Positions 23,260 to 63,037 of a stretch of 64,000 nt of DNA are shown here, in pieces. The position numbers and the translations under genes were made by a program. The stretch is from Escherichia phage RCS47, in sequence record NC_042128.1; one strand, 5' to 3'. The notes beneath the pieces were generated by a model that had not been told where the DNA came from, searched no databases, and saw only the letters and a list, made by a program, of their open reading frames with translations. The number at the start of each line of letters is the position of its first letter. The first letter of the stretch is position 1.

Positions 23260-24105
23260 ATGCTGGCTAAAGTCACTTTCCTGAGCTGTATAACGATGAG
23301 CGATTTTACTTTTTCTGGCTATGAATTGGCCTGCTTTGTAACACACTCCGGTCTATCCCGTAGCGCCGGGCATATCCTGTCGCAATGTGCAAATCTCGCG
23401 GCAACAACCAGTGAATACTTCATTCACAAGCCTCACCGCCTGATCGCGGCAGAAACTGGTTATAGCCAATCAACCGTCGTTCGTGCATTCCGTGAAGCTG
23501 TAAACAAAGGAATCCTGTCTGTAGAGATTGTTATCGGCGATCACCGTGAACGTCGCGCTAACCTGTACCGGTTTACACCATCCTTTTTGGCCTTCGCACA
23601 ACAAGCCAAAAATGCGCTGATTGAAAGCAAATTAAAGATCTCTTCAGCGGCAACCAAGGTTAAAGCTGTTCTCGCTAAGACATTGGCTTTATTTAATTTT
23701 TTATCCACATCCCCATGTCAAAATGATACCCCCTCCCCCTGTCAGGATGACGTGGCAATAAAGAATAAGAAGTCACAAGTTAAAAAAACAAAAAGATCAG
23801 TTTCCGACGGTGCCGGAACGTCCAGACTCAAAAAATTGACTTCGTGGATCGCTGAGGCAAAAGCAAAAGCTGACAATCTGCGGTTATCCAAAAAACGCGC
23901 TCAAAAACATGAGTTCAAGCAGAAAGTAGAGGCGGCAGCGCGGAAATATGCTTACCTGAAGAACAAGCGTTCTCCTGATATTGGCGGGATATCAAACTTC
24001 GATAATCTGCCGCATTGCATGACGGTAAACGAAGCTCTTAATGCGGTTTTAGCCAAAAATAAAGATAACGAACAATGGGGTATACCGGCAGGATTCAGAG
24101 GGTGA
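23260..24105 (+). CDS. repL: RepL-like lytic replication initiator
   Basis: 281 aa, immediately downstream of kilA in one operon. Confidence 0.5.
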   Translation: MLAKVTFLSCITMSDFTFSGYELACFVTHSGLSRSAGHILSQCANLAATTSEYFIHKPHRLIAAETGYSQSTVVRAFREAVNKGILSVEIVIGDHRERRANLYRFTPSFLAFAQQAKNALIESKLKISSAATKVKAVLAKTLALFNFLSTSPCQNDTPSPCQDDVAIKNKKSQVKKTKRSVSDGAGTSRLKKLTSWIAEAKAKADNLRLSKKRAQKHEFKQKVEAAARKYAYLKNKRSPDIGGISNFDNLPHCMTVNEALNAVLAKNKDNEQWGIPAGFRG

Positions 24106-24109
24106 TAGA

Positions 24110-24120
24110 TTGCTCTAATC
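24110..24120 (+). promoter_or_regulatory. truncated C1 operator-like motif (attgctctaat) abutting the IS left end
   Basis: first 11 nt of the 17-mer; the remainder is replaced by IS sequence. Confidence 0.3.
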
Positions 24121-25560
24121 TGGAGTCACCTGGCGTTTTCAGCGAAAAACCGCCGAGAACCCTCGCCCAATGCGGGCGGGGAGGAAAGGCGGAAAAGCCC
24201 GAAGGGCTTTAAAAATATTATTACGGTGTTAGCATAAAAACCTGTACCAATGAGCGGTGACTATGTTAAGAGCAACAAAAGTACGCATCTACCCGACACC
24301 AGAACAGGCTGAATTTATCAACGCCCAGTTCGGTGCAGTGCGTTTTGTGTACAACAAAGCTCTGCATATCAAGAAACATTCTTACCAGCGGCACCGCGTA
24401 AATTTAAACCCGCGTAAAGACCTCAAACCACTGCTTGCAGTGGCGAAGAAATCCCGCCGGTATGGATGGCTTAAAGAATATGATTCTATTGCGTTGCAGC
24501 AGGCGGTAATTAACCTCGACGTGGCTTTTTCTAACTTTTTCAATCCGAAACTGAAAGCAGGTAAACCTACCTTTAAAAGTAAACACGGCAGACAATCTAG
24601 CTATCATTGTGTTGGCATAAAAGTCCTTGATGGTGCGATAAAAATACCGAAAATCTTGCCGATTGAAGCGCGTTTACATCGTGAAATTACGGGAATGCTG
24701 AAAAGTATCACGTTGAGCCGCAGCGCAACCGGGAAATACTACGCGTCGTTACTCTGTGACGACGGGATGGAAGCGCCGGCAAAGCCCGCACTGATATCAA
24801 ATGTGACAGGGCTGGATATGGGGCTGGCGCATTTTGTCATCAAATCGGACGGCAATAAAATTGCCAGTCCCCGCCACCTAATCAATGCAAGTCGCAACCT
24901 GCGCCGGAAGCAGAAAGCACTGTCCCGTAAGAAAAAAGGGAGCGCAAACAGGCGCAAAGCCAGAATACAACTTGCAGCCGTTCACGAACGGGTAGCCAGT
25001 GCCCGTGCCGATTTCCAGCACAAGTTATCTCGCGCAATTGTTGACGAAAACCAAGCGGTAATTGTCGAAACATTGAAAACGGCAAATATGATGAAAAATC
25101 ACCATCTGGCTCGTGCGATAGGCGATGCTGGATGGTCTGGATTCATCACAAAACTGGAATACAAAGCAACAGAGAAAGGTGTGCATCTGGTGAAACTGGA
25201 TCAATGGTTCGCCAGTTCGAAAACCTGCCACTGCTGCGGTCACAAAATGTCGGAGATGCCATTACATAAGCGCATCTGGCAGTGTCCAGAGTGTGGAGTT
25301 GAACATGACCGCGATATCAATGCGGCGCTCAACATCAAACGCAAGGGCATACTGGAATTACAAGCGGCGGGACTCGTCGTTTCTGCCCATGGAGGCCAGC
25401 GTAAATCCGTCACACAGACGGTTGCGGCTTAAGAAGTGGGAAGCCTCGCCCGACAGGGCGGGGAGCAGTCACTATGGATTTTCTTTGGCGCGGTCTGGCC
25501 ATTAGGGGTCATGTTTGCTGCAACGTTTCTTCTGATGTGGATATTCACCCTTCCAGGTGA
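24121..25560 (+). mobile_element. IS200/IS605-family element encoding only TnpB (right boundary uncertain, between ~25470 and ~25770)
   Basis: tnpB flanked by GC-rich subterminal hairpins (ctcgccc..gggcgggg motif on both sides); no tnpA ORF. Confidence 0.7.
24263..25432 (+). CDS. tnpB: TnpB (RNA-guided RuvC-like nuclease of IS200/IS605 family)
   Basis: ~389 aa; N-terminal ...ATKVRIYPTPEQ..., C-terminal zinc finger CHCCGH...CPECG and ...DRDINAALNI; start taken at ATG 24263. Confidence 0.85.
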   Translation: MLRATKVRIYPTPEQAEFINAQFGAVRFVYNKALHIKKHSYQRHRVNLNPRKDLKPLLAVAKKSRRYGWLKEYDSIALQQAVINLDVAFSNFFNPKLKAGKPTFKSKHGRQSSYHCVGIKVLDGAIKIPKILPIEARLHREITGMLKSITLSRSATGKYYASLLCDDGMEAPAKPALISNVTGLDMGLAHFVIKSDGNKIASPRHLINASRNLRRKQKALSRKKKGSANRRKARIQLAAVHERVASARADFQHKLSRAIVDENQAVIVETLKTANMMKNHHLARAIGDAGWSGFITKLEYKATEKGVHLVKLDQWFASSKTCHCCGHKMSEMPLHKRIWQCPECGVEHDRDINAALNIKRKGILELQAAGLVVSAHGGQRKSVTQTVAA

Positions 25561-25770
25561 TTTCTATAGAAAAAAAGCCAGACATTGATACACCCGCTGC
25601 GGTGTGCTTGAGGCTATCTGCTTCAGGCATTCCCCGAAAAGCAGATAGAAGAAAGCCCCAGTAAACATTATGCGTCCCGCACAACGCTTAACATTAACCG
25701 GGGCCATACCTATGCTTAGCGTGCTTAGATTAATCCTCTCCTCTGTCAAGGAGCAAGGAATTTTTTACTG

Positions 25771-26367
25771 CTATGCCGCCTTTCCAGTTATGGATTCAGC
25801 GACCAGAACAACCCCATGCTTACTTCGATCTGGGTGTTCACTCCATATCTCGGATTCAGGAATACTTACCCCGTCATAGCAAACACGTTCGCCGTCAAAC
25901 GGGTAATACTGAGCGGCATCGGTGTCGAGGATAAACACTTTTAGCTCGGAAGAGCGACGGGCGATATGTTGCCAAAGAGCTTTTCCACCTTCGTATTGCT
26001 CATTATCACTGAGCAAAACAACACCAGCTTTTGAGGCTACGGTTTCGTAAACAAAAGTAGCTAAACCGACATCCCGGACAGTTCCATCAACCACGATACC
26101 TTCAATCTGGGCAACATCGCTATCCTCCCAGAACTTCCTTACCAGTACGCCTTCAAGCTGCGGGCGACGTTGAAGTTCAAGAGTAGCGACAACCTTATGC
26201 CGCATATCACCATCGATAACAGAAGGCGCAGCCTCTATTACAGCTGCAAATGGGGTTTTGGAATCCCATATAACCTGGTAAAGCACACCCTGGATGGTAA
26301 CTCCGTCCAGGATCGAAAATCGACGAGCGACAGTACCCGGGGAGTACGACATTGGAATCACAGCCAT
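25771..26367 (-). CDS. hypothetical protein (pmgF-like by position)
   Basis: 198 aa from internal Met with AAGGGGGA RBS. Confidence 0.4.
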   Translation of the reverse strand: MAVIPMSYSPGTVARRFSILDGVTIQGVLYQVIWDSKTPFAAVIEAAPSVIDGDMRHKVVATLELQRRPQLEGVLVRKFWEDSDVAQIEGIVVDGTVRDVGLATFVYETVASKAGVVLLSDNEQYEGGKALWQHIARRSSELKVFILDTDAAQYYPFDGERVCYDGVSIPESEIWSEHPDRSKHGVVLVAESITGKAA

Positions 26368-26489
26368 TTTAGAGTCCCCCTTTAACAGTACAGGCACAAA
26401 CATCTACCTCAATAATTGTAGTTTATTAGAACATTAATAATCTAACATAAAACTCCAGACAATGTTATCGATGCATTTTTATATAAAAT

Positions 26490-26520
26490 AGTTATAAAAA
26501 AAGCTCCCGAAGGAGCTTTA
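26490..26520 (-). terminator. rho-independent terminator of the sheath/capsid operon
   Basis: hairpin aaagctcc-cgaa-ggagcttt followed by a T-run on the - strand. Confidence 0.55.
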
Positions 26521-30151: not shown

Positions 30152-31879
30152 TTACTCAGAGTCACCGGCATCAATCGTGTCGCCGCTAATGAAGTTAAGC
30201 CCGCCTTTTTTGGCCATTGTCAGCGTTACACGAGTGAAGTAATCAGCGCCGTTGCGTGGGTGCATATCGTTGATAGCCGAACCCCACAGCGTGGTACGGT
30301 TGACCAGCGCCGGAGTGGTCGGATGCTGGAACGGGATGGCCGGGACAGCATCACCAGTCACGAAGCCTGCTTTACCCGGATTTTCATCACGGACGTAGCA
30401 CAGCACATCCATCGAGCTGAACTGAATGTTCTCTGTCGTTAAGTTCTTACAAATACCAGCAGGTACTTCGTACACTTTCACGTTACCGAACAGGGTACCG
30501 ATGTAGTGAACATACGGAGTCTGGATATAGTCTTCGGCTGGCTGGAAGAAATCCTTCGGCAACTGTTTGAAGAAAGATGCTGCATCAGCACCAGCAAACA
30601 TCCCCATCGCACCAGAAGATTTAACGCGCTCAATAATGTCGCGATATACAGTCTGGAATTTGCCACGAATGATGGTTGCCCATACATCAAAGGACTGGTT
30701 AACCGGCAGAGCGATGTCAAAGGTGTCGGTCGCAAGAGTACGCCAGATCATGATGCGAAGACGCAGCATATCCTGTTCATGAGACAGGTATTCCTTCAGG
30801 GTGCGGAACTGTAGGGAACCCAGGTCCAGACCAAATTCACGCTGTGCTTCATACGCCGCCTGTACCGTGTGCTCAGCCGCGATAACGAACTGGCTTGGGA
30901 ACAGGGTGTATTTCTTCATTTCGTGGTTGATCAGCGGGATCAGCTCAGGAGCGGCTTCAATATTGATTTCCGTCTCAATTGCGATCTCAGTGCCTTTATC
31001 CGGCGCTTTGGAGAACGACAGGGCAATCTGACCAATGTTGTAGTTCAGAGAGCAGGTAACAGTGATTTGCTCACCAGCAGCATTAGTAAACGAGTGAAGT
31101 AGGCTGCCGGAACCGTTATCAACAACAGACTTAATACGGTTAACGTAGATGTTAGTACGACCTTTTCGGATTGGTACATTCTGGCCTTCGAAGTCTTCCA
31201 TCTTGAAGGTTGCGGTTTTGCTGGTGCCATCGGAGCTTGCCACCAGCACATAGCGGCGGCGTAACTGGCTGTACACACCGACGGATTGCATGTCCAGAAC
31301 ATCACCAGCAGCATAAGAACCAAAAGAGGAACCTGCCACGTTAAAGACTTCATAGATGTCGGACTGGTCACGCGTAACCGGAATGAAGGTACACGCATCA
31401 GCGGTAGCTGCCCCCAACTGAACAGGCAGGATCATCGCGAGGAATAAAGGCAGACGCATAACACCGTCAGAAACGCTCATCATCTCTGCTGCGACGGATT
31501 CCAGCATCGCTTTATTAGTGGCATCCATGCTATTGCGGGTGGACTCAATCAGGCAGTTTTCCAGCGTCTGGTGGCAGGAGGCCAGAATTTCCGGACGCGG
31601 CATAGATTTATGTGCTGCGGCGTAGTCAGCCAGTGCACTTGCCCACGCTGTAGCGATTTGAGCGGTGGCATTATCAGAGATACCCGCAAAAACCGGGTCT
31701 TTACGTGCAGCTTCAAGGATAGATGCGGCACGCGCGGCATCATCTTTAATGAATTGGTTATCAGTACCGAACTGCGCAGTGCTTGCCCAGCCAAGCACAG
31801 CTTTAGAGCGTTTTGCGATATCTGCAATACGATTCTGGTATTCGCGTAAGTTACTCAATTTACTCTTCCTTAAACACAA
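30152..31879 (-). CDS. putative major capsid protein precursor (positional, P1 gene 23-like); true start probably a TTG near 31858
   Basis: 575-aa ORF between sheath gene and parS; no ATG at ORF start. Confidence 0.4.
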   Translation of the reverse strand: MCLRKSKLSNLREYQNRIADIAKRSKAVLGWASTAQFGTDNQFIKDDAARAASILEAARKDPVFAGISDNATAQIATAWASALADYAAAHKSMPRPEILASCHQTLENCLIESTRNSMDATNKAMLESVAAEMMSVSDGVMRLPLFLAMILPVQLGAATADACTFIPVTRDQSDIYEVFNVAGSSFGSYAAGDVLDMQSVGVYSQLRRRYVLVASSDGTSKTATFKMEDFEGQNVPIRKGRTNIYVNRIKSVVDNGSGSLLHSFTNAAGEQITVTCSLNYNIGQIALSFSKAPDKGTEIAIETEINIEAAPELIPLINHEMKKYTLFPSQFVIAAEHTVQAAYEAQREFGLDLGSLQFRTLKEYLSHEQDMLRLRIMIWRTLATDTFDIALPVNQSFDVWATIIRGKFQTVYRDIIERVKSSGAMGMFAGADAASFFKQLPKDFFQPAEDYIQTPYVHYIGTLFGNVKVYEVPAGICKNLTTENIQFSSMDVLCYVRDENPGKAGFVTGDAVPAIPFQHPTTPALVNRTTLWGSAINDMHPRNGADYFTRVTLTMAKKGGLNFISGDTIDAGDSE

Positions 31880-31984
31880 GGCACTTGTGTGAATCCCTTT
31901 TCGGAAGAGATTTTATTGAAAGTCACTTGTTGACTTTCTCGTGACAAGCAATTTTTTTATTTTTTCGGGAGGAGGGGAGGAAGG

Positions 31985-32085
31985 TAAAATCCAAGGTGAA
32001 ATCGTGGCGATTTCACCTTGAAATTTTAGAGTAATTTACTTTAAAAACAGTCAGTTAATAGTGAAATTTGAATGGCGAAAGTTTA
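31985..32085. other. parS: plasmid centromere parS
   Basis: palindrome aaggtgaaatcgtggcgatttcacctt (heptamer ATTTCAC boxes with TCGCCA box) at 31993-32019, AT-rich putative IHF site, second GTGAAAT/TGGCGA arm at 32059-32081; immediately downstream of parB. Confidence 0.8.
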
Positions 32086-33084
32086 AGGCTTCGGCTTTTT
32101 ATCGAGGCTCTTTCTAAGGATATGCCCAATCATCCTGTCGAGTTCTTCCTGTAACTCTTTTGAGAGTCGATTAAACTCATAAGAAAATGCACGGCCTTTC
32201 ACGCGCTTCCTTGCAAAGCGATCCTTGTCCTCAAATTTCCATAATTCAGTAACTACGGACTTATCTTTAGAACCTTTATCCGTGAGTAGTGAGGCTTCCT
32301 TTGTTATCAAGCGCAGGATTTTATTTTTAACTTCATCTTCGGCCATTTCTTCAATGGATAAGATGTCGTTTATTTCCGGGGATATGTTTTGAATAAGCTG
32401 ATCAAACTCTAAATTCTTGTTCCCCATTTCGTCGCCAACAGCACAAAGCGTTTTGTAGTCCGAAAAGGTTAATTCCGACTGCACAGGGAAAAGGGCGACT
32501 AATTCTTCCGGAGCACTCGCTGCCTGGAGAGCACGCGTGACCTTCGCCTGAGACAGCCCTTCTTTGGCTGCAATATCCTTCTGACTCATCCCATCATTTT
32601 TCATTCGCATCAAACGCAGACCTATTTCTCGAATGCTGTGCTGCAATGCTGTCTGAACGTCTTTCGCTAAATTTTGCGCTTCCTGAACGCTGATCTCCTG
32701 GTCCGTGACTAAAACCCGCAACCCTACGTTCTCTAAGATGGCAGAAGCTCGACGCCGGGAACCATCCAAAATTTCAATTTTCCCTGTAGCCCGTCTGACA
32801 CCTATTGCAGGGTAAAATTGCTGATGCTTAATAGTGCTTCGGATACTTTTTAATGATTTTGGCGTAAGAGATGCCTGGTCACGCCCGTTGTTATGCTGAT
32901 CAACAAAGGTATCGCTTTCTACCTGGTTCGGAGGTATTACCTCTTCAATAAATGTGGCCTGGCGACCAGTTGATAACTTGAATACCTGCTCGACTCGATC
33001 GCCAGAGGCTGAAGAACTATCAAATCCGCTTAATATTGAAGGATTAAGGGTTCGCCCAATTGTTGGTCTGTTTTTCTTTGACAT
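32083..33084 (-). CDS. parB: partition protein ParB
   Basis: 333 aa; HTH ParB family; adjacent to parA and parS. Confidence 0.85.
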   Translation of the reverse strand: MSKKNRPTIGRTLNPSILSGFDSSSASGDRVEQVFKLSTGRQATFIEEVIPPNQVESDTFVDQHNNGRDQASLTPKSLKSIRSTIKHQQFYPAIGVRRATGKIEILDGSRRRASAILENVGLRVLVTDQEISVQEAQNLAKDVQTALQHSIREIGLRLMRMKNDGMSQKDIAAKEGLSQAKVTRALQAASAPEELVALFPVQSELTFSDYKTLCAVGDEMGNKNLEFDQLIQNISPEINDILSIEEMAEDEVKNKILRLITKEASLLTDKGSKDKSVVTELWKFEDKDRFARKRVKGRAFSYEFNRLSKELQEELDRMIGHILRKSLDKKPKP

Positions 33085-33100
33085 GGGGGTTTCTTACTCC

Positions 33101-34297
33101 TCAGTTAGATCTGATAAATTCAATACGGTCAAAAACTGCTTTAGCAAAATCTTCCGCGGCAATTCGCGCGTTCTTCAATGCATCAGCACTACCAACATAC
33201 GTTGCCGGGTTAGCTGAAATAACAGTGTCAAAAGACTCGCCGCAGCGTTCAAAACCGTCAAGGCGAGGGAGGACGACATCAAGCATATCCCCACCGAACA
33301 CTTCTTTAGCCAGGCTATGGCAATACTTATGGTCTGCCTTGTTACTCAACTTGGACATAAAACCAATGTTAGTCGCAAGCTGGCACTCGCAGCCTTCATC
33401 CGAAATGAGTTTTACCAACTCAGGAAGGCGGGCAACGTATTTAAGCGATGAGTGGAAATCAACCGTTGCAGGCGGCAGAGGTGTAAACAGTATATTGGCC
33501 GAGGCCAAAGCATTTTTCAGGAAGGCGTCAAGGTGAGGACCACTATCAACGAGGATAAAGTCATAATCGCTCTTCAGCTTATCAATCACATTTTCTTTCA
33601 GGACTGCATGGATGTTTTGACCCGGTAGATGCTCATTGCACAGCTCTCTCCAATCGGATGCAATAAAGGCATCGTCAATCGACGCAGGCATAACGTCAAC
33701 CCCAGGTACAACAGAAGGAACAATAAACTCCTCTAACAGCTCTTCACGGCTTACATTCTGCAACATAGCCTGTGCAGATGTTGCGTTTACGATACCAATA
33801 GAGTGTTTATGGCTTAAAAACATCGTTGCTGAAGATTGCGGATCAAGGTCAATAACCAGAATCCTTAAATCTTCCATCAGAAGATGAGGGTGAGCACGCA
33901 TTGCATGCGCCAGAGAAACCGTCGATACAGTTTTTGACACACCGCCTTTAAGATTGGAGATGAAAATCACATACGCTTCGCTGTAGCGATCCCGGTATTT
34001 TGGCACTCCGCGATGTTCATATATGTCAATGATGTTCTGAATTGACATCGCATATTTCATTGAAGAGCCAGCAGGGCGTTTATCGAAAACATAACCCTTT
34101 TCTTCCATTTCACTCACGGCATAGTCAACGTTCGCTCGAGTCAGTAGAGGCAATTTTGCCAGTGCCGCTTTCGCATAGACCTGGTAAAACTCGTTCGCGT
34201 GTAGCTCATCCTTTTGCAACTGTACTTGTTCAGTCAGAACATTGAGCATTCTGTTTGCTCTTTGAGCAACCTTGTGAAGCTGGCTGGAATCACTCAT
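33101..34297 (-). CDS. parA: partition ATPase ParA (type Ia, with N-terminal DNA-binding extension)
   Basis: 398 aa; deviant Walker A KGGVSKT. Confidence 0.9.
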   Translation of the reverse strand: MSDSSQLHKVAQRANRMLNVLTEQVQLQKDELHANEFYQVYAKAALAKLPLLTRANVDYAVSEMEEKGYVFDKRPAGSSMKYAMSIQNIIDIYEHRGVPKYRDRYSEAYVIFISNLKGGVSKTVSTVSLAHAMRAHPHLLMEDLRILVIDLDPQSSATMFLSHKHSIGIVNATSAQAMLQNVSREELLEEFIVPSVVPGVDVMPASIDDAFIASDWRELCNEHLPGQNIHAVLKENVIDKLKSDYDFILVDSGPHLDAFLKNALASANILFTPLPPATVDFHSSLKYVARLPELVKLISDEGCECQLATNIGFMSKLSNKADHKYCHSLAKEVFGGDMLDVVLPRLDGFERCGESFDTVISANPATYVGSADALKNARIAAEDFAKAVFDRIEFIRSN

Positions 34298-34366
34298 CGA
34301 AAGCCATCCTTTATGCTGTATTTTTGAATTTAATTAAAAATGCTGCATAAAATAATAATGTATGCG

Positions 34367-34383
34367 TAGATGCTTGTACATAG
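34367..34383. promoter_or_regulatory. candidate parA operator palindrome
   Basis: atgct-tgtaca-t-agcat near-palindrome in the parA promoter region. Confidence 0.3.
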
Positions 34384-34434
34384 CATTCTCTGCATGTTTG
34401 GTTCATTTTGCACGATTGAGAGTTACAAGGAGGG

Positions 34435-34460
34435 CACAAAAAAGCCCCGTTCAGGGGCAT
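34435..34460 (-). terminator. rho-independent terminator after the T5orf172 gene
   Basis: - strand hairpin gcccctgaacggggc followed by TTTTTTGTG. Confidence 0.6.
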
Positions 34461-34465
34461 CAGTG

Positions 34466-35275
34466 TTATTTGCTAAGAGCAGCGAATAATCGTTCGAAAT
34501 CGATAGTATCTATGGCACGCGTAAGCGCCGGAAGTTCAGCCTCAAAGTACCCGTGTCGATCGTAAAAGAAGGGACCGAAGAGCGAGGCATGTTGGATTCT
34601 ACTTCGCCCCAGCCCGGACACACAGTTAAGCCCATTACCGGCTAAAAGGCTAAAAAACTTCTCTGGATTATCGTGGTAAAGCTGGGAATCAATGGTGGCG
34701 GTTAACTCTTCCATAGGGAAGCACACCCGCCTTGTCTCCCAGGAATATTTAGTCCGAAGCATAAACATTGCTTTCAGCAATTCACATTGAGCGCGGATCG
34801 CGTCCGGTTCATAGCCAGATATGGAGACATAAGCCACGTCCCTCATTCCTGCGTCATCTTTGAAAGTCACGATAGAAGTAACATCCAGCTCTTTTTCGAA
34901 AGAGCGGGCAGCATCTACTGGACGCTGAAGTAAATCATTCGACTTAATGCGCTCGAGAATCCCTCCCCACATATCATTTAGATATTCGATATGAGCCAAA
35001 ACCTTATCAAGACACTCTCGTGTAAACCATTCAGTATGCCCGCCACCAGCGCTTTTCTCCCACGGCGCATTCCAGGGGAAAAAGGTTGCGTGTAAAGCCC
35101 GCTCAAGATTAACTATTGCCAAACGCGTACCACGATAGACCCGTGAAAGCGCAAAATCGGGACTCACTTGTAGCCCTTTAAACCGTGCCAATGGACCACA
35201 TGAAATGCCGATTTTAAAAGTATCTCCATTCTCCGGCACCAGAACGTAGAGGTAGTGTTGTTTCTCTTCTTGCAT
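34466..35275 (-). CDS. T5orf172 (GIY-YIG-like) domain protein with uncharacterised C-terminal domain
   Basis: 269 aa; N-terminus HYLYVLV...FKIGIS...R...E..LH..F...GGGHTEWF matches T5orf172/MUG113 signature including the EWF motif. Confidence 0.6.
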   Translation of the reverse strand: MQEEKQHYLYVLVPENGDTFKIGISCGPLARFKGLQVSPDFALSRVYRGTRLAIVNLERALHATFFPWNAPWEKSAGGGHTEWFTRECLDKVLAHIEYLNDMWGGILERIKSNDLLQRPVDAARSFEKELDVTSIVTFKDDAGMRDVAYVSISGYEPDAIRAQCELLKAMFMLRTKYSWETRRVCFPMEELTATIDSQLYHDNPEKFFSLLAGNGLNCVSGLGRSRIQHASLFGPFFYDRHGYFEAELPALTRAIDTIDFERLFAALSK

Positions 35276-35309
35276 ATCAATACCACTGCTTGATGAGAAC
35301 CGCGCAAAT

Positions 35310-35566
35310 GTTGACTATGCGCGAAAGTTAATGTGAATAGTTGACTATGCGCGATGTGACTACAGTCAAAAGTTGACTGTAGTCGATTTAACTCCACCAA
35401 AGATCGACTATGTAAGATATTGTCGGGAGAAACGTTGACTATACGCGATGAAATGACCCTAAAAGCCATCTCAATAGCAACTTGCAGAATATTGACGCCA
35501 GCAAAAATCCACCAGCGTCAACGAATGTCGCCTATAGTCAACTTCTCGCTATCGCATATAGTCAAT
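35310..35566. repeat. incA-like iteron array (copy-number control)
   Basis: at least 8 copies of TTGACTATRCGCGA-like repeats in both orientations between repA and parA. Confidence 0.6.
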
Positions 35567-35567
35567 A

Positions 35568-36452
35568 TTATGGATTGCGCTTATGGATCTGGAAGCCGAT
35601 TTTCCTGCCGTTTTTTATTTCTGAAAATTTAAGATATTCAATAGCTTCCAAATCTTTCATGGCTTTTCTGATAACGCTATTTTGCACGCTAACGGATGAT
35701 TTGAGATTAAGCCTTGCTCTAAGGCGCTCAATGCTGACAGGTGCCGGGTTGGCGGGTAGAGCCTCAAAGAATGTATACAGTACCTTGGCCGTCTCTTTGC
35801 GCCCGAGCTTATCCAGCATCTTCAGCTTCAGGATTCGCTTATAGTCAACATAGTAAAGTTCAGATAGCTGTTTCTGCGGCTGGATCTCGATAACATCAAG
35901 CTCAGTATTCAGGCTGCTATATGCCAACAAGTTGACGTTAATGTTATTGAGATGACCTTTTGCCGCCGGGAAGCGGAATTTGACAACTGTCTGCTGAATG
36001 CGTGTCAGAGAGTCATCAATACTTTTACGGAACGCCTTTGAAAGGCGCTTACGTGGATAGCCGCATCGATCGGCAAACTCGGAGAATGGCAGGGTGATTA
36101 TGCCGTCATCATCAGGAGCATAGTCAAACAACGCGGAGGTTATGCCCACCCACACCTTAAAATCAGTATCCATATCCAGGCGTGGACCATGAATTTCAAT
36201 TCCCTCATAGCCTTCCTGCTCAACAATTTTGAGGCTTGATAGTTCTTCGGTTGCGTTCGTTGTGTTTGTTGTAACTGACGATCCGCGACGTAGCGCCACA
36301 TTGGTAGATTTTAAGGTTGGCACAAACACACCTAAGCGCAACAAAGCTATGGGTTGTATAGTGCTGTTGTTATTGGGCTTCAGGCTGTGGATTTCTCCTG
36401 TATTTCCTGCAACTTCTTCAACGCTAAGGAAGCCTTTACTTTCTTCCGGCAT
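35568..36452 (-). CDS. repA: plasmid replication initiator RepA (iteron-binding)
   Basis: 294 aa flanked by iteron arrays on both sides. Confidence 0.75.
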   Translation of the reverse strand: MPEESKGFLSVEEVAGNTGEIHSLKPNNNSTIQPIALLRLGVFVPTLKSTNVALRRGSSVTTNTTNATEELSSLKIVEQEGYEGIEIHGPRLDMDTDFKVWVGITSALFDYAPDDDGIITLPFSEFADRCGYPRKRLSKAFRKSIDDSLTRIQQTVVKFRFPAAKGHLNNINVNLLAYSSLNTELDVIEIQPQKQLSELYYVDYKRILKLKMLDKLGRKETAKVLYTFFEALPANPAPVSIERLRARLNLKSSVSVQNSVIRKAMKDLEAIEYLKFSEIKNGRKIGFQIHKRNP

Positions 36453-36527
36453 CGTGGTTTCTCCATGTGTGGCGCGGCCTGGCGTTAATTTAGATGACTG
36501 TTATCAACAGCTGTGAATATTCAGGCT

Positions 36528-36745
36528 CTAAAATCGCGTACAGTCAACGTTTCTGTCGCGTATAGTCAACAATAAATCGCGTGCAGTCAACATAAAATCG
36601 CACACAGTCAACATAAAATCGCGTATAGTCAATGTTGATCCCGTTTCAGGCCATGAACGGCGCGGCTTACAGCGATCCGGGATCTTCTTTGGATCTTCCT
36701 AGGTTCTCTTTGGGATCTGTTTATTGGATCTATGCTGTGGATAAG
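36528..36745. other. plasmid origin oriR: 5 direct iterons (incC), 5 GATC sites, DnaA box
   Basis: five ~19-bp direct repeats (a/t)aaatcgcRtRcagtcaac at 36530-36633 with ~21-bp periodicity; GATC at 36674, 36681, 36692, 36714, 36727; perfect DnaA box tgtggataa at 36736-36744. Confidence 0.75.
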
Positions 36746-36786
36746 TTGAATAAACCGGCCAACATAGCCGGTTGGAAGGAAGGGTA

Positions 36787-37179
36787 TTATTCTACGCTTT
36801 CGATAAGAAGACCATGTTCATAACATTTAAGCTCATCGCCTTCGTACAGGAATTGGTATCCAATACCACCATTTTCATGGACATTAGGGAATAACTCATA
36901 ACTCACTGAAGAGCAAATCACACCAATGCAGCGATCAACGCCTTCTCGTTCTTCAGTGCTGAAAAAATCCTCTTCGGTAAGAACATGAGTACATTGCTCA
37001 TCAGCATAGGTCGGAAATACATGCTCAATGCAATCCGGGTGTTTTAAACCAAGCTGAGCGGCAAGCTCGAAAGCATGACGGTATTGTTCAGATCCTGGCT
37101 TGCCAACAGTGATGTGCTCAATTTTGTAGATTGAAGTCGCTTTGTTGATAGTTTGCTTTACTGTTACTTTATCAGACAT
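36787..37179 (-). CDS. hypothetical protein
   Basis: 130-aa ORF. Confidence 0.4.
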   Translation of the reverse strand: MSDKVTVKQTINKATSIYKIEHITVGKPGSEQYRHAFELAAQLGLKHPDCIEHVFPTYADEQCTHVLTEEDFFSTEEREGVDRCIGVICSSVSYELFPNVHENGGIGYQFLYEGDELKCYEHGLLIESVE

Positions 37180-37190
37180 AAAAATCCCTT

Positions 37191-37442
37191 TTAGTTACCG
37201 CTGATAGCGCGGTTGTAATCATTAACGTTGCGATTCTTCCTGTTAATCCCCATCAGCATCGTTTCTGTATCGAGGATATACGCTGGCAGATCATCGAAAT
37301 ATTCACTGCTAAACTCTGGCATTCTGCACATAAATGCACTTTTGGGGGCAGGGTGGTTAACCTTTGTCGGCGTCGGCGTTAAATTCGCTGATCGACTCCC
37401 GGAGCAACCGCTGAGTGTCAGCAGGAATGCGCTGGCGAACAT
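37191..37442 (-). CDS. small proline-rich outer-membrane lipoprotein (o-spanin-like), embedded out of frame in the 3' part of the upstream gene
   Basis: signal peptide + lipobox LTLSGC, Pro-rich mature part; overlapped architecture. Confidence 0.45.
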   Translation of the reverse strand: MFASAFLLTLSGCSGSRSANLTPTPTKVNHPAPKSAFMCRMPEFSSEYFDDLPAYILDTETMLMGINRKNRNVNDYNRAISGN

Positions 37443-62780: not shown

Positions 62781-63037
62781 TGGATGTAAAAGAGAAGGTT
62801 TTGCAGGTGATGCGTTCCCGGGCTGCCCTGCAAGATAAAGCTCTCGGCGGGGAATATCCATTCAGGATGGCAACCTGGAATCTGCGGTTGGCAATGGAGA
62901 AGGCATTTCCTGATGAAGAATGGCGTTCGGCAGATTTGCGCAAAATTCTTATGGAGCTGGCTAAAGACGGAACAGTATCCAAAGATACCCATGCCAGCCG
63001 GATTGGTCAGGCGGTATGGAGACTGGAGGTGAGGTAA
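62780..63037 (+). CDS. hypothetical protein
   Basis: 86 aa from internal ATG, start overlapping the preceding stop. Confidence 0.35.
   Translation: MDVKEKVLQVMRSRAALQDKALGGEYPFRMATWNLRLAMEKAFPDEEWRSADLRKILMELAKDGTVSKDTHASRIGQAVWRLEVR

Follow-up and report, generated by a model that had tools for sequence, protein, structure and literature searches.

The stretch of Escherichia phage RCS47 analysed here, 64,000 nucleotides of sequence record NC_042128.1 that we call the window throughout, contains a 4.9-kb region devoted to plasmid maintenance. Reading along the coordinates, this region consists of parS, parB, parA, a gene of the T5orf172 family, a bidirectional iteron array, repA, five phased origin iterons, a cluster of GATC sites and a perfect DnaA box. 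An earlier, sequence-only reading had listed parS, both par genes, the array, repA and the parts of the origin; all of these are there, on the minus strand, as is the T5orf172 open reading frame (ORF). The neighbours are also those of phage P1, with gene 23 on one side and upfA on the other. The window as a whole can be aligned collinearly with the P1 segment between about 27.5 and 84.6 kb (79% aligned, at 88–99% identity) and with pS51_2 (NZ_CP015997.1), a circular 98-kb E. coli plasmid. Window segments without a P1 counterpart correspond to variable regions already described for P1-like phage-plasmids (PMC9603915). Our results leave little doubt that the region is the maintenance block of a P1-like phage-plasmid (Punavirus, SJ46/JL22 type), in which the ParABS partition system of P1 is combined with a p0111-type iteron replicon and a linked, dispensable gene of the T5orf172/GIY-YIG family.

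The partition part of the block is almost indistinguishable from that of P1. The parS centromere (incB; 31996–32078, minus strand) is 100% identical to the annotated P1 parS (58912–58994). Its four box A heptamers (31996–32002, 32010–32016, 32018–32024 and 32061–32067) and two box B hexamers (32005–32010 and 32073–32078) can be read directly from the sequence, and the IHF site (32045–32057) is placed by its match to P1 parS. The parB gene (32083–33084, minus strand; PF08775, E=1.6e-44) encodes 333 amino acids, all 333 of which are identical in P1 ParB. The parA gene (33101–34297, minus strand) encodes a type Ia ParA of 398 amino acids with an N-terminal helix-turn-helix (Pfam HTH_54 and AAA_31); 397 of its residues are those of P1 ParA, and the sole difference is residue 342, which is V here and F in P1. 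The par operator and the promoter Ppar (34295–34380, minus strand; -35 TGTACA, -10 TATTAT) lie at the position equivalent to P1 61211–61296, and a promoter scan picked up Ppar independently at 34380–34352. A boxed parS with an IHF site, a helix-turn-helix/Walker-type ParA, a PF08775 ParB and an operon under Ppar together make up a P1-type (type Ia) ParABS system, so the P1-type partition claimed by the sequence-only reading stands. Judged by these identities, the system is phage P1's own, and incB specificity is predicted.

Similarity to P1 ends at a sharp boundary beyond Ppar and resumes at another inside the origin. By blastn, positions 31085–34399 match P1 58000–61315 at 99.4% (the 3' part of gene 23, parS, parB, parA, and Ppar with its operator), and positions 36659–38000 match P1 62816–64163 at 95.9% (five GATC sites, the DnaA box, and upfA onward). 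For the segment in between, 34400–36658, blastn gave no significant match to P1, which carries 1,500 bp there. This 2,259-bp cassette, with junctions to P1-homologous DNA at 34399/34400 and 36658/36659, comprises the T5orf172 gene, the incA-like array, repA and the five origin iterons.

We assign the cassette to the p0111 type on the basis of its near-identity to JL22 and SJ46. The whole 4.9-kb region is 98.4–98.6% identical to SJ46, JL22, phi456 and Ro157c2YLVW, and up to 99.4% identical to plasmids. The p0111 phage-plasmids SJ46 (a Salmonella phage, Punavirus SJ46), JL22, phi456 and pS51_2 have the same genes and junctions (98.4–99.4% over 4.9 kb), and only point changes separate the present region from theirs. 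JL22, which matches over 100% of the query at 98.4% identity and has been typed as p0111, was published as carrying a repA' (p0111) and an unknown gene, gp57, in place of repA (IncY) (PMC9603915). P1-like phage-plasmids have two replicon types, IncY and p0111 (PMC11165635). Among 55 such elements 31 were IncY and 24 p0111 (PMC9603915), and in Salmonella there were 132 p0111 and 94 IncY elements, with 17 replicon-type changes inferred on the tree (PMC11165635). Automated typing holds a naming trap here: PLSDB/MOB-suite gives the replicon of pS51_2 as 'IncHI1B', whereas the literature and PlasmidFinder give p0111.

The cassette is also widespread. In PLSDB, 382 plasmids cover at least 80% of the 4.9-kb region, and the cassette itself is found at 98–99.6% identity in SJ46, JL22, phi456, about 400 plasmids and 419 E. 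coli genomes. These 419 are about 8% of the 5,426 complete E. coli genomes searched; on plasmids they hold the cassette at 466 places, on chromosomes at 8. By sequence comparison, then, the replicon is the already published p0111 alternative to IncY, and the replacement is both known and very common. The P1-type junction of parA, incA and repA is uninterrupted in 143 PLSDB records, compared with about 400 records that carry p0111. In many more records than these 143, the IncY rep region is fused to another type of par. Many IncY-type plasmids (PLSDB H260–H266) match P1 only from the first incA iteron on (query 386–389, equal to P1 61485–61488). This boundary indicates another recurrent recombination junction, at which a different par module, probably of the P7 type, would have been joined to the IncY replicon.

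Within the cassette, repA (35568–36452, minus strand) encodes 294 amino acids that we classify, from Pfam, phrog_775 and sequence identity, as a p0111-type initiator of the RepFIB/P1-RepA clade, iteron-binding by homology. The match to Rep3_C scores 27.3 bits (cut-off 21.1), that to Rep3_N 22.0 bits, just below the cut-off of 22.4, and that to phrog_775 has E=2.6e-134. RepA is only 42% identical to P1 RepA; as a yardstick for an IncY-like RepA, a rare P1-like lineage discussed below (L009) reaches 83%. At least 99% identity is found in 392 plasmids, and the next step down is 45–49%, to the RepFIB initiators of IncF plasmids. RepFIB-type replicons have an initiator of the same clade, with this identity extending over the full length, and iteron-based control as well. 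They differ in iteron sequence and genomic context, and RepFIB plasmids are not phages. On these identities the protein is a distinct member of the RepFIB/P1-RepA clade.

The five direct origin iterons, the equivalent of incC, occupy 36530–36633 (minus strand, consensus GTTGACTRTACGCGATTTT), with 14-bp cores starting at 36535, 36557, 36578, 36599 and 36620. They are spaced by 22, 21, 21 and 21 bp, exactly as the iterons of P1 incC are. Their sequence is unrelated: the iterons here are GTTGACTATACGCGATTTT, and P1's 19-bp iterons of the GATGTGTGCTGGAGGGAAA type are absent from both the origin and the control array; between GTTGACTATACGCG and P1's GATGTGTGCTGGAGGG there is nothing in common. When the window was searched for the 14-bp core with up to two mismatches, all ten matches fell within 35310–36633, a concentration that is not due to chance. 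One of the iteron-like 14-mers, CGCTTATAGTCAAC (35836–35849, plus strand, one mismatch to the core), lies within the repA coding sequence. By estimate, chance would yield about 0.02 matches of this kind in the whole window, and the same sequence is present in the diverged repA of another rare lineage (L007). It may serve regulation, or it may simply follow from the encoded peptide YYVDYKRIL.

The iterons are followed by the part of the origin that the element has in common with P1. The GATC (Dam) cluster spans 36637–36730, with sites at 36637, 36674, 36681, 36692, 36714 and 36727, four of them in AGATCC[AC] heptamers. Nowhere else in the window are GATC sites as dense: the cluster packs 6 into 95 bp, compared with at most 3 elsewhere (Poisson probability about 3e-6 per 100-bp span). 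The sequence-only reading had counted five sites; there are six, namely the five from 36674 on, homologous to the P1 stretch that holds P1's five annotated Dam sites, and one at 36637 beside the outermost iteron. A GATC abutting the outermost origin iteron (GATCAA; 36637–36640 here, near 4822 in L007 and near 4647 in L009) occurs in p0111, p0111-like and IncY-like elements but not in P1. The perfect DnaA box TTATCCACA (36736–36744, minus strand) is not significant by count, but its position is equivalent to that of P1's annotated DnaA site (62891–62908). Its neighbour at 36745–36753 (TTATTCAAC) is degenerate, with three mismatches. A near-consensus box, TTATCAACA, lies between the iterons and repA (36501–36509, plus strand); its equivalent in L007 is a perfect TTATCCACA, and a role for it can be proposed. 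One more perfect TTATCCACA is found at 23701–23709, inside the repL/lytic-origin region. An Rfam search of 31000–38000 returned nothing credible.

On the other side of repA, an iteron-core search found an incA-like control array at 35305–35570 with iterons in both orientations. Iterons inverted relative to those of the origin start at 35310, 35340, 35372 and 35434, with a degenerate copy near 35403 (spacing 30, 32, 31 and 31 bp). A short block nearest to repA contains direct iterons at 35529 and 35553, with a degenerate copy near 35509. In total the array has six clear and two degenerate iterons, compared with nine in P1. The 30–32-bp phasing of the inverted block is that of P1 incA copies 1–6, and the direct block corresponds to P1 copies 7–9. 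The array also contains a near-perfect palindrome at 35358–35385, GACTACAGTCAA-AA-GTTGACTGTAGTC, in which a half iteron is paired with the inverted iteron at 35372. Dimeric Rep proteins of other iteron plasmids bind inverted-repeat operators of similar appearance, but the palindrome here belongs to the control array instead of the repA promoter.

The last component of the cassette is the T5orf172 gene (34466–35275, minus strand), which encodes a predicted T5orf172/GIY-YIG family nuclease of 269 amino acids (PF10544, 26.8 bits, cut-off 20). It stands, together with its own intrinsic terminator (34444–34458, minus strand, found in a terminator scan: GCCCC-TGAAC-GGGGC followed by TTTTTT), where P1 has a spacer of about 170 bp between Ppar and incA. 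The N-terminal 100 or so residues form the nuclease domain, and the catalytic Tyr, Lys-x-Gly, Arg and Glu are invariant across 50 homologues. Structural matches in BFVD include phage T5orf172 proteins, among them ORF88 of phage ICP1, known as Odn. Domain match, catalytic residues and fold thus all place the protein in the T5orf172/GIY-YIG superfamily. The C-terminal 165 or so residues are nearly unique, and the structure model is of moderate to low confidence there. For this domain Pfam gave nothing credible at E values up to 10, and a comparison with RepA profiles, which asks for the kind of chimera that Odn represents, found no similarity and hence no RepA-derived DNA-binding domain. PHROGs places the protein in a family of unknown function.

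Homologues are rare, with 5 clusters among 5.8 billion proteins. An exhaustive profile search yielded 164 matches, nearly all of them to the N-terminal 100 or so residues, and the full architecture was found only in P0004, P0009 and P0011. Scans of GTDB genomes and IMG/VR for the gene returned almost only near-identical copies. By tblastn the gene is present in 402 plasmids and 10 phage records. Because these are essentially the carriers of the p0111 replicon, the gene is, on its distribution, part of the cassette and not a private insertion. The sequence-only reading had treated it as an insertion into an otherwise conserved module; this view has to be given up, since the gene sits inside the replaced segment and travels with it in about 400 plasmids.

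Being part of the cassette does not make the gene indispensable. The ratio of nonsynonymous to synonymous polymorphism (pN/pS) is 0.32 for the T5orf172 gene, 0.02 for repA and 0.002 for parA. In 9 of 45 near-identical p0111 loci the gene is broken by premature stops or an insertion, and repA and parA are intact there. Five of these copies stop at residue 112 (L018, L019, L021, L022 and L024). One stops at residue 68 (L050), one contains an insertion of about 1.8 kb (L053) and one is a truncated match (L055); the remaining one is SJ46 itself (L047), where the ORF that is whole in the window stops at residue 228. P1 and the IncY-type plasmids in PLSDB have an uninterrupted junction without the gene. 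Presence or absence between conserved neighbours, with decaying copies, is the pattern of free-standing homing endonucleases. Judged from these patterns the gene is dispensable and fast-evolving, which is easier to reconcile with a nuclease that is selfish or accessory than with a factor at the core of maintenance.

The association of such a gene with this locus seems to be old. Three rarer P1-like lineages, which come from public read assemblies (L007, L009 and L010), carry T5orf172 homologues with the whole architecture, always between the control iterons and parA; it is this shared slot that suggests an old companion of the locus, although P1 itself lacks the gene there. In L007 (5006–6936), RepA is 84% identical to that of the window and the iterons are the same, while the nuclease is 44% identical. 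L009 (4813–6882) combines a RepA 83% identical to that of P1, and P1-type iterons, with a nuclease about 30% identical to the one described here. L010 (3861–5891) has a third type of RepA and a T5orf172-family gene in the same slot. ParA and ParB of L007 and L009 are 99.7% and 98% identical, yet the two lineages carry different cassettes of RepA, iterons and nuclease. The same cassette polymorphism is therefore present in a second par background.

What could the protein do? By analogy, its most likely role is that of an accessory nuclease, either selfish in the manner of homing endonucleases or directed against competitors. There is a published precedent for a T5orf172 nuclease that is aimed at the origin iterons of a rival, with exchange of the replicon module as the escape route (PMC8263062). 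ICP1 Odn (Gp88) and free-standing GIY-YIG homing endonucleases resemble the protein in their T5orf172/GIY-YIG fold, two-domain layout and position next to a replicon module that is swapped as a whole, as well as in presence/absence polymorphism and decaying copies. The DNA-binding domain of Odn is 42% identical to the RepA_N of its target (PMC8263062); the C-terminal domain here is not similar in sequence to any RepA. The analogy is only a lead, because it is this defining RepA-derived domain that our comparison with RepA profiles did not find.

A more specific version of the idea is that the protein is a replicon-linked weapon or drive that cuts the rep region or iterons of a rival IncY-type element when two P1-like phage-plasmids meet. 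The rival would then be either converted to the p0111 cassette, as by a homing endonuclease, or eliminated, as by ICP1 Odn. Such a role would explain why the cassette is so sharply bounded, why nuclease and replicon are strictly linked, why the replicon has switched repeatedly on the phage-plasmid tree, and why the gene evolves fast and often decays. We nevertheless consider it a tentative proposal that is probably wrong in this form.

Another possibility is that the protein is a working part of replication or partition control, for example a domesticated regulator that acts on the iterons or Ppar as CapR of PLE does. Across four diverged lineages and three types of RepA, the gene invariably has the control iterons on one side and Ppar on the other, and a domesticated T5orf172 regulator is known (PMC8096241). 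The gene is missing, however, from P1 and from every IncY-type plasmid in PLSDB, and a fifth of the near-identical copies (9 of 45) are broken, including that of SJ46. The invariant catalytic residues are what would be expected of an active nuclease, and pN/pS is 15 times that of repA. A regulatory role is therefore improbable in our view, and an accessory nuclease remains the reading that we prefer.

The sequence-only reading expected the prophage to be extrachromosomal, and our results make this very likely as far as sequence comparison can tell. The expectation rests on the ratio of plasmid to chromosomal places of the cassette (466:8) together with the intact genes. Of the 474 places in complete E. 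coli genomes, the 466 are on plasmids mostly of 90–100 kb. Furthermore, JL22 has been shown to lysogenise a recipient and to form intact virions (PMC9603915).

Several observations nevertheless weigh against our interpretation of the block. The window is internal to the element and contains neither of its ends, and 8 of the 474 cassette places are chromosomal. P1 has two tandem DnaA boxes, whereas a single perfect one is present here. A consensus promoter scan of the region gave no match for a repA promoter. Lastly, the role of the nuclease is conjectural, and neither PADLOC, for defence systems, nor NCBIfam returned a match for the T5orf172 protein.

The first two of these points speak for another reading, in which the element is integrated in a chromosome, or is a defective remnant, and the module does not maintain a plasmid; putative chromosomally integrated P1-like elements have also been reported in some Salmonella isolates (PMC11165635). 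We consider this very unlikely. A search for chromosomal flanks within the window found none, and the last 3.6 kb, which are not in P1, align with a variable region of pS51_2. Collinearity of the window with P1 spans 57 kb of P1 coordinates and is shared by this circular 98-kb plasmid, the ORFs of parA, parB, repA and the nuclease gene are all intact, and nearly all places of the cassette are on plasmids. The one chromosomal copy that we inspected (E. coli sequence type 2747) is a scrambled, fragmented and pseudogene-rich patch in a lambdoid prophage. We rejected it as a model for the window, which is not of this kind.

That the block is the P1 R-replicon (IncY) itself, conserved except for an inserted T5orf172 gene, can be dismissed almost with certainty: P1 is matched in gene order, in origin iteron count and phasing, in the GATC cluster and DnaA box and in the flanking gene 23 and upfA, but the missing nucleotide homology over 34400–36658, the divergence of RepA, the unrelated iterons and the publication of the 98.4% identical JL22 region as p0111 refute this identity.

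The relation to P1 is thus one of shared architecture with a different initiator. In comparison with the P1 region (NC_005856, 58.9–62.9 kb; parS, parB, parA, incA, repA, incC/oriR), order, strand and neighbours are the same, as are parS and ParB (100%), ParA (99.7%), Ppar with its operator, the GATC heptamers and the position of the DnaA box. Also in common are five iterons at 22/21/21/21 bp and a control array in two orientations with a period of about 31 bp. The differences are the 42% identical RepA, the unrelated iterons, six plus two control iterons instead of nine, one perfect DnaA box instead of two, a sixth GATC site, and the T5orf172 gene with its terminator. The statement of the sequence-only reading that order and counts match the P1 R-replicon therefore holds for the order and for the number and phasing of the origin iterons, but not for RepA, the iteron sequences, the DnaA boxes or the control array. 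Likewise, a complete maintenance module of P1 architecture is present and its partition system is P1's, but its replicon is the p0111 alternative: the architecture of an IncY replicon was found, P1-type RepA and P1-type iterons were not. Read from these comparisons, the module is a mosaic of P1-derived partition and an exchanged replicon, and not the P1 R-replicon. The exchange took all RepA-specific parts, that is, the protein and the iterons of both origin and control array, and kept the host-factor end of the origin with its GATC heptamers and DnaA box.

How the module would work can be proposed by analogy with P1 oriR and par, from which all of the following biochemical steps are taken. 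ParB and IHF would assemble on parS, and ParA would repress Ppar and position the plasmid copies before division. At the origin, RepA monomers would bind the five phased iterons; next to these, in the Dam-methylated GATC region, the DNA would be opened and the helicase loaded, and host DnaA would act at the box on the flank. Titration of RepA by the bidirectional array downstream, and pairing of this array with the origin ('handcuffing'), would keep the copy number low. Presumably repA is autorepressed via the proximal iterons, where its promoter would lie if it is placed as in P1. The T5orf172 gene would not be required for maintenance. One consequence would concern the relation to P1 itself: the element should be replication-compatible with P1/IncY, because the iterons differ, and partition-incompatible with P1, because parS and ParB are identical.

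The main finding matters little in itself, since the replacement of IncY by p0111 has been published and the cassette is carried by about 8% of complete E. coli genomes. P1-like phage-plasmids do belong to a class that carries extended-spectrum beta-lactamase (ESBL) and mcr genes in Enterobacteriaceae, and annotators should label the replicon neither IncY nor 'P1 R-replicon'. The split within the origin is a clean natural domain swap that shows which part of oriR is specific to the initiator. What interest remains lies in the linked T5orf172 nuclease, which is an unknown gene in the literature; its position across three types of RepA, together with its decay, would suit a nuclease involved in competition between phage-plasmids.

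Elsewhere in the window, a stretch of 2.4 kb just after repL (24120–26496) is absent from both P1 and pS51_2. It contains a gene of the TnpB/IS605 OrfB type encoding 391 amino acids (24257–25432; PF07282, PF01385 and PF12323) and an unassigned ORF of 210 amino acids (25771–26403). The region of dmt, a Dam-family methyltransferase, has about 1 kb of extra sequence compared with P1 (40483–41502); the gene has 3,288 nt in pS51_2 and 2,265 nt in P1. Given the GATC cluster at the origin, this extra sequence may be of relevance.

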